Source: Abditibacterium sp. | GTDB taxonomy: Bacteria > Armatimonadota > Abditibacteriia > Abditibacteriales > Abditibacteriaceae | Direction of reading: 5' to 3' | DNA: 64,000 bases | Assembly (NCBI GenBank): GCA_965246885.1 | Contig: OZ251992.1 | Span: forward strand, 1,728,001-1,792,000 | Part shown: piece after piece, positions 58,321 to 62,413 of the stretch | Layout: every line of letters begins with the position of its first letter | How positions within the stretch are numbered: the stretch's first letter is position 1 | Made by a program: the position numbers and the translations under genes | The notes under the pieces: model-generated | Told to the model about the DNA's origin: nothing | The model's input: the letters and a program-made list of their open reading frames with translations, nothing else | Databases searched by the model: none

Positions 58321-58460
58321 CGACGGCCAAGCGTTGTCGCGTGACGGCCAAGCGTTGTCGCGTGACGGCGGAGCGTTGTCGCGTGACGGCGGAGCGTTGT
58401 CGCGTGACGGCGGAGCGTTGTCGCGTGACGGCGGAGCGTTGTCGCGTGACGGCGGAGTTG
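58321..58460. repeat. Near-perfect 21-bp tandem array (6 units plus partial)
   Basis: (c/t)gacggccaagcgttgtcgcg x2, tgacggcggagcgttgtcgcg x4. Confidence 0.95.
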
Positions 58461-58480
58461 TAGGGCTGGCCTTTCGCTGT

Positions 58481-59713: not shown

Positions 59714-60151
59714 TTACAGCGCGGGGGCAACCTCAATCAGTTCGCCGACGACAAGTGGGGCGCGTTTTTGTTCGAGGGCGTCGCGGCGGTCAATGGCGGC
59801 GACTTCGCGGACTGTCTTTCCTTCGCGGCGCAAAATCGCAGCAAGCGAAGCGACGCAATCTTGCATCGCCGCCGTGCCGCCACTCAGGTTGACGACGTTC
59901 CGCTCTTCGCCCGACGCCGCCAAAAAACGGGCGAGCAAGCGCCCTTCGGCAAAGCCCGCAAGGGGATCGCCCAAGACGTGCGTCTCGAACTCGAAGTTGG
60001 AGTGAAAAAAGCGCGCGGCGTCTAAGGCCGTGCCCAAAGCGGCGATGGCTTCGACCGAGGTGACGACCACCACGCGGTCGGGGCGCGTTAGCAAAATGGC
60101 GGAATACAGCGTGCCGTAGTTAAGTCCCAACGGGGAAAACAAGACTTTCAT
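59714..60151 (-). CDS. Stand-alone CARF-like Rossmann-fold protein
   Basis: N-terminal VLFSPLG...G.L.SA..PDRVVVVTS and VVNLSGGTAAM resemble CARF motifs I and II; 145 aa, no effector domain. Confidence 0.65.
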   Translation of the reverse strand: MKVLFSPLGLNYGTLYSAILLTRPDRVVVVTSVEAIAALGTALDAARFFHSNFEFETHVLGDPLAGFAEGRLLARFLAASGEERNVVNLSGGTAAMQDCVASLAAILRREGKTVREVAAIDRRDALEQKRAPLVVGELIEVAPAL

Positions 60152-60172
60152 CGGAAAAGTTCGGAAAGTGGA

Positions 60173-60201
60173 TTGACAGGCGCTGCGGTGTTGCTTATAA
60201 T
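60173..60201 (+). promoter_or_regulatory. Perfect consensus sigma70 promoter upstream of the rtcB leader
   Basis: TTGACA (60173-60178)-17 nt-TATAAT (60196-60201). Confidence 0.9.
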
Positions 60202-60239
60202 AGTTCCCCGTCCGCGAAGACCTTCGCAGGAGACCCATC

Positions 60240-60338
60240 ATGTCCGCGCCGCGCCCATTTCTCGCCCACAACCGCCTTCCGCAACCCGGAATAGGTCGGT
60301 CGGCGCGCGCGCTCATCCTTCGGGGCACCCGCTTGTAG
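60240..60338 (+). CDS. Putative leader peptide (32 aa) of the rtcB attenuator
   Basis: AGGAGA RBS 6 nt before ATG; MSAPRPFLAHNRLPQPGIGRSARALILRGTRL*; stop 20 nt before terminator. Confidence 0.6.
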   Translation: MSAPRPFLAHNRLPQPGIGRSARALILRGTRL

Positions 60339-60358
60339 GCGAAAGAATCCACTTTCCC

Positions 60359-60394
60359 GGCGCGAAGGCTTTGGCTTTCGCGCCTTTTTATTTT
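60359..60394 (+). terminator. Intrinsic terminator within the rtcB 5' leader
   Basis: ggcgcgaaggc-tttg-gctttcgcgcc followed by tttttatttt. Confidence 0.85.
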
Positions 60395-60478
60395 CCCCAT
60401 CCCGGCCCCGTCGCGTGCGCCCTCTCACAAGAAGCGCCAGCTTCGGGGCAATCGGGACAAAGGTGTGAGAAGCAACCC

Positions 60479-61906
60479 ATGATTACTGGAAAGACATTGA
60501 AGCAACGCGGCTGGAAAGAGGGCCGCACCGTAGGACTCGCCAAAGCCGCCGCCGAAGCACTGAGCGCGCGCGGACTGGACGAGTCGCAAATTCTAAACAA
60601 GCTGGACGAAGTGTTGGCCGCGCCCGCCGCTTATCTAAGCGACGCGACGTTCAACGCGCTCGCCGACGAACTGTTGCGCCGCGAGCGCAACGACAAATCG
60701 AAATTCGACGACGCCCTGCGCGAAACTCCCGTCCCGTTCCCCATTTGGGGCGAGGCCCAAATTGACGCGGGCGCCATCGAGCAGATGCGCAACGCCGCCC
60801 ATCTTCCCATCGCAGTCGCGGGCGCCCTAATGCCCGACGCCCACATCGGCTACGGCCTCCCCATCGGCGGCGTCCTCGCCACGCGCGGCACCGTCATCCC
60901 CTACGCCGTCGGGGTCGACATTGCCTGTCGGATGAAATTATCAATCTATGAATGTTCGCCGATTATCCTTGGTCAGCAGAAGGGGAAGTTTGAGAACGCT
61001 TTGCGCGACCAAACGAAGTTTGGGGCGGGCAAGGCGTGGCACGGGGCGGAACGGCGCGAGCATCCGGTGTTGGACGATCCCGATTGGAACGCTTTCGGTT
61101 TGCTTCGCAAATTGCGCTACAAGGCCGAGGAGCAGTTGGGGACTTCGGGGAGCGGCAACCACTTTGTCGAGTGGGGCGAACTGGAGTTGAAAGAAGCGAG
61201 CGCGGAGTTGGGGTTGGACGCGGGCAAATACCTCGCGCTCCTCTCGCACTCCGGGTCGCGCGGCGTCGGGTTCCAGATCGCCAAGGTGTACTCGAACCAC
61301 GCCAACTCTTTGCATCCCCAACTGGCGGACAAGGTGCGCCACCTCGCGTGGCTGGATATGGACTCCGAAGCAGGGCAGGAATACTGGATCGGAATGGAGT
61401 TGGCCGGTCGTTTCGCCGAAGCCAACCACGCCGTTATCCACCGCGAAGTCGCTAAAGCGGCGGGCCTCAAGGAGATTGCATCCGTCGAAAACCACCACAA
61501 CTTCGCGTGGCGCGAAACGCTATCTGATGGCGGGGAAGAGGTCATCGTTCATCGCAAAGGCGCGACTCCGGCGGGCGCGGGCGTGTTGGGCGTCATCCCC
61601 GGTTCGATGGCCGACGCGGGCTACGTCGTGCGCGGCAAAGGTCTGGCGTCGAGCCTGCAATCCGCTTCGCACGGCGCGGGCCGCAAGTTGGGACGCAAAG
61701 CCGCCATTGGCTCCATCACCAAATCGCAGCGCGACCGGTATGTATCCGAGCGCGGCGTCAAAGTCTTGGGCGGCGGCTTGGACGAAGCGCCGCAAGCCTA
61801 CAAGGACATCGAAGAAGTCATCGCCGCCCAGCGCGACTTAGTGGATGTGTTGGCCAAGTTCTCGCCCAAGATTGTGATGATGGCGGACGAAGCGGGGGAT
61901 GTTTGA
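60479..61906 (+). CDS. rtcB: RNA ligase RtcB
   Basis: MPDAHIGYGLPIGGV, VGVDIACRM, QLGTSGSGNHFVE, HSGSRG, NHHNFAW, VHRKGATPA, IPGSM, SASHGAGR, DEAP.AYKDI. Confidence 0.96.
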   Translation: MITGKTLKQRGWKEGRTVGLAKAAAEALSARGLDESQILNKLDEVLAAPAAYLSDATFNALADELLRRERNDKSKFDDALRETPVPFPIWGEAQIDAGAIEQMRNAAHLPIAVAGALMPDAHIGYGLPIGGVLATRGTVIPYAVGVDIACRMKLSIYECSPIILGQQKGKFENALRDQTKFGAGKAWHGAERREHPVLDDPDWNAFGLLRKLRYKAEEQLGTSGSGNHFVEWGELELKEASAELGLDAGKYLALLSHSGSRGVGFQIAKVYSNHANSLHPQLADKVRHLAWLDMDSEAGQEYWIGMELAGRFAEANHAVIHREVAKAAGLKEIASVENHHNFAWRETLSDGGEEVIVHRKGATPAGAGVLGVIPGSMADAGYVVRGKGLASSLQSASHGAGRKLGRKAAIGSITKSQRDRYVSERGVKVLGGGLDEAPQAYKDIEEVIAAQRDLVDVLAKFSPKIVMMADEAGDV

Positions 61907-61963: not shown

Positions 61964-62413
61964 ATGGAAGAAGAACTCAAGATAATCCCGACGACATACA
62001 AAGCCAAACTGCCGCGCGCGTTATCTTACTCTTGCGGCGCGAAAACGCTTTCCGTAGCATGGCAGGGCGTGCCACAGTTCGACTCTTTCGATCTTCAGTT
62101 TCGTTGCGACGTGCCATTAGAACTTCGGGGTTTTAGTGGACATCGGGACATCCTCTCCGTTTATCTCAGCAAGTGGCACTTCACCCAATCTTCGCGCTTT
62201 TGGGAGGAAAGAGAGGACGGAAAGCTCATGTGGAACATTAACGTCCGTGCTTGTCGGTGTGAAGACGCTCATGAAGTGCGCCAGTGGTTGCGCGACAAAG
62301 GTTTGGGGATGGCGCGTTCGTGGCTTGAACACGATGCTCATCTCAAACGGCAGAGTTCTTGGCTCGCCACATTTGATGAAGATTCGCGCGAGTTCGCCGT
62401 TCGGCATGGCTAA
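61964..62413 (+). CDS. Hypothetical protein (lower GC)
   Basis: GAGGAG RBS; 149-aa ORF. Confidence 0.65.
   Translation: MEEELKIIPTTYKAKLPRALSYSCGAKTLSVAWQGVPQFDSFDLQFRCDVPLELRGFSGHRDILSVYLSKWHFTQSSRFWEEREDGKLMWNINVRACRCEDAHEVRQWLRDKGLGMARSWLEHDAHLKRQSSWLATFDEDSREFAVRHG

Follow-up and report, generated by a model that had tools for sequence, protein, structure and literature searches.

The rtcB locus of Abditibacterium sp. raises the question of how an RNA ligase gene is switched on in a lineage in which no RtcR was found (0 of 27 Abditibacteriaceae genomes). We analyzed the window, which is the whole stretch of 64,000 nucleotides of DNA around this locus, together with the upstream regions of related rtcB genes. 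The promoter, the 32-codon uORF and the terminator found ahead of rtcB probably constitute a ribosome-coupled transcription attenuator, with rtcB being read only when translation of the uORF fails. The elements of the locus are shown in Table 1.

Table 1. Coordinates of the features of the rtcB locus, counted from the first nucleotide of the window.
Feature	Position	Strand	Details
Stand-alone CARF-fold gene	59714-60151	-	145 aa; PADLOC CARF2, E 7e-34; head-to-head with rtcB
Sigma70-type promoter	60173-60201	+	TTGACA-17-TATAAT; -35 box 60173-60178, -10 box 60196-60201; 12/12 match
5' hairpin H1	60211-60231	+	outer pairs overlap part of the uORF Shine-Dalgarno site; contains CCTTCGC (60221-60227)
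uORF Shine-Dalgarno (SD) site	60228-60233	+	AGGAGA; sequence match
uORF	60240-60338	+	32 codons, from ATG (60240) to TAG (60338)
Segment 0	60246-60254	+	predicted (MFE) to pair with segment 1 on the ribosome-free leader
Segment 1	60305-60313	+	GC repeat with in-frame Arg-Ala codons; 5' strand of the UUCG hairpin with segment 2
Segment 2	60317-60329	+	candidate antiterminator
Intrinsic terminator	60359-60394	+	11-bp stem 60359-60384 (8 G-C pairs), -19.7 kcal/mol, then U tract TTTTTATTTT
rtcB	60479-61906	+	475 aa, RNA ligase; Pfam RtcB, E 1.6e-81

The RtcB encoded in the window harbors the metal- and GMP-binding motifs PDAH, DIAC, GSGNH, HSGSRG and SHGAGR, which align with solved RtcB structures and which we take to be RtcB motifs with a catalytic role. 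With the model of PrfH-linked RtcBs (TIGR03073) it scored 136.7, below the cut-off of 271.8, and no prfH over the cut-off was found in its own genome. The nearest relatives of both RtcB and the neighbouring gene belong to Abditibacterium/Abditibacteriaceae, and this RtcB was found in all 27 family genomes searched. Intein-like insertions starting at the Cys of VDIAC (RtcB residue 150) were observed in five of the 27 family RtcBs (L112, L116, L118, L133 and L135), and rtcB of locus L025 (G023) is split over two frames near residue 235, by a frameshift or an assembly error, with its leader intact. In the window, an ORF of 149 aa without Pfam or NCBIfam match lies directly after rtcB (61964-62413, + strand), and a short intergenic tandem repeat was noted at 58380-58470 (RDNAPPS/RDGQALS in translation).

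The promoter, SD site, 32-codon uORF and 11-bp terminator that the original prediction had placed ahead of rtcB were all confirmed in the sequence, and no -24/-12 box was seen in 60100-60480, as it had also claimed; sigma54 is encoded in the genome. The promoter is the only promoter-like site between 58000 and 64000, and transcription upstream of rtcB probably starts near 60208. The leader folds with z = -2.7, one of 200 shuffles being equally good. By a loose definition, six terminator-like sites were found for 9.7 expected, which alone is not above chance. Among the 171 strong terminators of the genome, nine have an SD-led ORF of 20-55 codons that ends 12-50 nt upstream, and promoter, SD-led ORF and terminator occur together at a single one, that of the rtcB leader; no further copies of this layout were found in the genome. 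Rfam covariance models (riboswitch, T-box and leader families) gave zero matches at gathering score in the window and only sub-threshold chance matches on eight loci.

The layout is kept throughout the family. A strong terminator was observed upstream of rtcB in 26 of the 27 family loci, and the full layout, with terminator and SD-led uORF of 30-45 codons, in 25 of the 27 genomes, which is the conservation of the upstream region that had been proposed as a check; of the two remaining loci, one lies at a contig end and keeps the terminator, and the other (L137) has no leader at all. All 25 family leaders carry an SD-like site before the uORF, 24 have a promoter match (9-12 of 12 positions), and in 22 the uORF stops 18-30 nt before the stem. 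A separate rtcB promoter downstream of the terminator had been named as a refuting observation; no sigma70-type promoter was found between terminator and rtcB in any of the 25 leaders, and the gap between the two is as short as 19 nt. Three loci (L120, L123 and L125) repeat the terminator 5' arm after the U tract. This extra copy is complementary to the 3' arm over 11-12 bp, the changes matching from locus to locus, and it could stabilise a read-through fold.

Outside the family, a strong upstream terminator was found in six of 78 more distant RtcB loci, and an SD-led uORF in one of them, a Ktedonobacterales locus with the full layout. Three of the other five, from an unclassified bacterium (L045), Anaerolineae (L042) and Chthoniobacterales (L079), have ORFs of 21-27 codons without a clear SD site and with the stop 24-31 nt before the terminator, and are probably further members or parallels. 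In Ktedonobacterales, 62 of 81 genomes were matched in the rtcB search, and 26 of the best 30 loci carry the terminator and a uORF (27-54 codons); the uORF assignment of L152 is uncertain, and this leader was omitted from the ribosome-footprint scan and from the dN/dS and frame analysis. A metagenome scan added seven loci, four of which were put through the leader analysis. The Ktedonobacterales terminator is almost identical in sequence to that of the other genera in the window's family, and in the aligned Ktedonobacterales leaders it is 96.5% paired and covarying, with none of 500 shuffles as good. A covariance model built from the Ktedonobacterales leaders alone recovered most other family genera with E values from 4e-8 to 0.06, the same-genus leaders with 0.1-0.8 or not at all, and the window leader with 0.81; run genome-wide, it misses the window leader. 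Natural constitutive or leaky variants might be represented by L153, which has lost the terminator, and L165, whose terminator is weak-tailed, both with intact uORFs. A different RtcB, from another family in the phylum, has a 300-nt leader that combines a promoter with an ORF of five codons and two U tracts resembling those of terminators (L029:1075-1400).

In an RtcB tree built on the 150 N-terminal residues, the Chloroflexota group is supported (100/97) and sits in a weakly supported group with Abditibacteriaceae (83/78), and the Anaerolineae RtcBs, mostly without leader, nest inside. Gene and leader may have been transferred jointly between phyla, the leader appearing to have travelled with rtcB and to have been lost where rtcB entered other operons.

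The uORF peptide is evolving near neutrality, with a pooled dN/dS of 0.79 over 12 close pairs and mixed stop codons, and no conserved run of tandem control codons was found in the uORFs of either phylum. Arg, Pro, His and Cys are over-represented in it, but not Ala (0.8x). GCGC is invariant in all 13 same-genus leaders, and the GCGC/Ala motif, located by pattern, is in frame in 12 of the 13 at varying distances to start and stop; the frame of the motif is fixed in 12 of 13 and 18 of 21 leaders, with an in-frame Ala (often Arg-Ala) in both phyla. As the peptides vary freely while frame and motif stay, these data would fit selection on translation itself and on its end point. Since the peptide uses many codon types and varies, the sensor is likely a general one, not specific to an amino acid or a drug.

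The proposed attenuator would work as follows. The promoter would fire constitutively. While the terminator forms, the antiterminator would be hidden beneath a ribosome translating the 3' half of the uORF, so that most transcripts would end near 60390. When no ribosome loads, or when it stalls early (on cut or uncharged tRNA, damaged rRNA or antibiotics), the antiterminator segment would be exposed and would base-pair with the 5' arm ahead of the synthesis of the 3' arm, and the polymerase would continue into rtcB.

The pairing that this scheme needs was detected in the Ktedonobacterales leaders. Their antiterminator lies inside the uORF, is 9-17 bp long, begins about 40-56 nt before the uORF end, and forms a helix with the last part of the spacer plus the terminator 5' arm. 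Of 28 Ktedonobacterales-type leaders (L145 removed as a duplicate of L150), 16 have a duplex between uORF and arm that is better than dinucleotide shuffles (p<=0.05). In 21 aligned leaders, an alignment that excludes seven leaders judged by eye to have no motif, pairing in the helix reaches 82.7% and 15 changes are two-sided; four of 500 shuffles did as well. In a model of 27 of these leaders with the ribosome footprint masked, freeing the arm costs 12-13 kcal/mol without a ribosome or with one 21-27 codons before the stop, and the cost drops to 7-8 kcal/mol with a ribosome 6-15 codons before the stop. Once the ribosome has reached the stop, the arm is captured again in this equilibrium model (11 kcal/mol), and the attenuator scheme has to account for this re-capture by steric exclusion or timing.

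The covariation of terminator and antiterminator that had been proposed as a check was thus found in the Ktedonobacterales relatives, but in the window's own family the signal is at the level of motifs only. None of the 25 family leaders has a uORF-to-arm duplex better than dinucleotide shuffles at p<=0.05, and the combined p values, which overstate the evidence as the genomes are related and not independent, are 0.16 with the spacer and 0.55 with the arm alone. A leader's own arm type pairs best in only six of the 25, and the ribosome-footprint scan is flat (means 8.3-9.8 kcal/mol in the family, 7.7-11.8 kcal/mol in the window). The family terminators amount to 20-29 kcal/mol versus 5-15 kcal/mol for the competing pairing, and therefore the choice to terminate must be kinetic. 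At the motif level, the pentamer that complements the loop-proximal part of the arm follows the arm type: CCTTC occurs in the uORF of 9 of 11 leaders with a GAAGG arm versus 0 of 14 others, and CACCC/ACACC within the last 65 nt in 6 of 8 versus 1 of 17 leaders, both motifs having been chosen after inspection of the data and in related genomes. The post-stop spacer was rejected as an antiterminator, as its pairing with the arm falls below that of its shuffled versions (combined p 0.99). Around the uORF stop, hairpins exceed the expectation from mononucleotide shuffles (combined p 1.5e-6, the leaders being non-independent).

As for the segments to be assigned in the window, the best duplex of its leader has p 0.49, and the two antiterminators named in the original prediction fared poorly, their complementarity to the arm being not above chance. 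The first, GCCTTCCGC at 60274-60282 inside the uORF, is present as stated, but it occurs in the window's own leader only and is not conserved. The second, CCTTCGC, is the 3' strand of the conserved hairpin H1, though it is the predicted partner of the arm in the ribosome-free nascent fold of the window. Four helices are kept in the eight closest leaders, namely H1 over the SD site, 0:1, the UUCG hairpin 1:2, and 2:3, most of their pairs being invariant and hence uninformative. H1 is predicted in eight of eight close relatives with varying loop length, and its core is 97.5% paired yet invariant, so it shows no covariation. The 0:1 helix is 96.9% paired with one two-sided change in eight sequences, which is not above shuffles, and the closing pair of the UUCG hairpin covaries (A-U/U-A/C-G/U-G). 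Segment 1 could alternatively pair with the base of the terminator. Segment 2 can pair through CCTTC, which is invariant in all eight closest leaders, with 60364-60368, and through 60325-60329 with 60359-60363, with one mismatch in the window. Segment 2 is the best antiterminator candidate in the window's lineage, though without significance by energy, with 60305-60313, 60221-60227 and 60242-60251 as alternatives, and this assignment is the least certain part of our reading. Overall, the core of the earlier claim, a uORF-terminator attenuator that does not depend on RtcR and sigma54, is supported by the layout kept in two phyla, by the covarying antiterminator of the Ktedonobacterales relatives and by the lack of RtcR matches and of downstream sigma70-type promoters in the family, but its named antiterminators are poorly supported.

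Three other readings of the leader were weighed against a general translation sensor. An unlikely one is that the leader senses a stall at or near the stop or at an Arg-x(2-4)-Ala stretch, caused by defective termination or recycling or by context-specific drugs, with segment 1 as the antiterminator and the UUCG hairpin as the anti-antiterminator. The in-frame Ala at one motif in both phyla, the covarying closing pair of the UUCG hairpin and the enriched stop-codon hairpins would agree with it, and so would the model of the five closest leaders, where capture of the arm is strongest with the ribosome 3-12 codons before the stop and falls to its minimum, or close to it, once the stop is reached. 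However, a fixed frame follows from a stop kept in place and needs no selection on the peptide. In Ktedonobacterales the antiterminator would be covered by a ribosome at this Ala, which would promote termination, and the below-shuffle pairing of post-stop spacer and arm and the mixed stop codons also speak against this reading.

The second reading concerns the divergent CARF gene, the less expected part of the locus, which lies 21 bp from the -35 box of the rtcB promoter; judging from this layout, its own promoter must share sequence with the promoter or the leader of rtcB. The protein is predicted by AlphaFold with pLDDT 93 and matches Cam1, Csm6 and ring nucleases in Foldseek, and its 160 close homologues have 79-254 residues. 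The gene was found in 20 of the 27 family genomes, in 13 of them head-to-head with rtcB, in three on the same contig 3-10 kb off, and in four on other contigs. Strong Cas10 matches were obtained in two of the 27 genomes and in none of the window's own, so the presence of the CARF gene does not follow that of type III CRISPR. Protein-assisted antitermination, in which termination is the default of the leader and a factor acting in trans opens it, would agree with this linkage, with the absence of RtcR from the family genomes, and with the fact that the RNA antiterminator is weak in the family and strong in Ktedonobacterales, whose rtcB loci show no such CARF gene within 1.5-kb flanks. As a parallel, the CARF domain of RtcR senses cyclic-phosphate ends and its gene is divergent from rtcBA, according to the accessible part of PMC12606134. 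On the other hand, all seven genomes without a CARF match, some of them incomplete, have the full leader, the protein is a CARF domain alone without an RNA- or DNA-binding domain and its nearest folds are cOA sensors and ring nucleases, and the leader has no conserved protein site, so that we regard protein-assisted antitermination as still less likely than a stall near the stop. A combined scheme, in which RtcR has been replaced in Abditibacteriaceae by a uORF attenuator reading ribosome progress together with a head-to-head stand-alone CARF protein, unlinked to type III CRISPR, that reads cyclic-phosphate RNA ends and helps to open a leader whose antiterminator is unusually weak, or gates RtcB, is a speculation to which we would give a small chance. 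If true, RNA repair would here be controlled through a CARF protein with no transcription factor involved.

Least probable is that there is no switch, the leader encoding a small protein or small RNA that ends at a terminator of its own and rtcB being served by fixed leak-through. The terminator does win at equilibrium, by some 9-10 kcal/mol for the window leader, and the family has no significant antiterminator. Against this reading stand a peptide without conservation, a cassette that accompanies rtcB in two phyla, the covarying antiterminators of up to 17 bp in homologous leaders, and the negative Rfam result.

The preferred reading, a translation-coupled attenuator, has known counterparts. 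The leader ORF of PA5471.1 is shorter than the uORFs of window-type leaders, which have 27-54 codons. In P. aeruginosa, full translation of PA5471.1 leads to the 3:4 terminator before armZ, while stalling, an amber codon at position 3 or loss of the tRNA CCA-adding enzyme leads to read-through, as described in the available part of PMC13041342. ArmZ (PA5471, upstream of PA5470) is described as RtcB-like, with its mechanism as proposed, in the sections accessible of PMC12057347 and PMC3884212. By layout, and as far as these partial texts go, PA5471.1/armZ and the window leader are alike in having a promoter (constitutive in P. aeruginosa and probably so in the window), a leader ORF and a terminator before an RtcB-family gene. 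Unlike armZ, the window rtcB belongs to another clade and retains the active-site motifs, it has no prfH over the cut-off in its genome, and it has no known anti-repressor role. An orthologue of the armZ leader was rejected on the TIGR03073 score and the prfH result given above.

In Actinomycetota, efficient translation of the whiB7/wblC uORF leads to the terminator and poor translation to the antiterminator (accessible parts of PMC10274678 and PMC7157823), and the whiB7 leader senses tRNA, synthetase and ribosome defects broadly (PMC10274678, in part). Like the window-type leaders, it has a long uORF of variable length and sequence, according to the same portion of PMC10274678. However, as far as these sources are accessible, the whiB7 uORF is Ala-enriched and its target is a transcription factor with positive feedback, whereas the window leader precedes an RNA ligase gene. 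An attenuator of the trp/his/leu type was rejected, as there is no conserved codon run and the target is an RNA ligase and not a biosynthesis gene.

In E. coli, rtcBA is under RtcR/sigma54 control, which is also described for close relatives (PMC12606134, accessible text). Going by that text, the two loci share the kind of target gene, presumably the same stress, and a CARF-bearing gene head-to-head with rtcB. Unlike the E. coli system, the window's genome has no RtcR and its rtcB leader no -24/-12 box, and its CARF protein lacks an AAA+ or HTH part; with no RtcR gene and no -24/-12 promoter, an RtcR/sigma54 rtc locus was rejected. No description of a uORF attenuator for this rtcB clade was found in the literature covered, which comprised main texts with thin coverage of subscription literature, and rtcB is not mentioned in the main text of PMC7157823 or in PMC13159725. 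The principle of attenuation is already known from PA5471.1/armZ and whiB7, and the gain is one of breadth and not of a new mechanism. The leader family provides a concrete RtcR-independent answer for one RtcB clade, and its Ktedonobacterales versions, with antiterminators of 9-17 bp, offer clean test cases.
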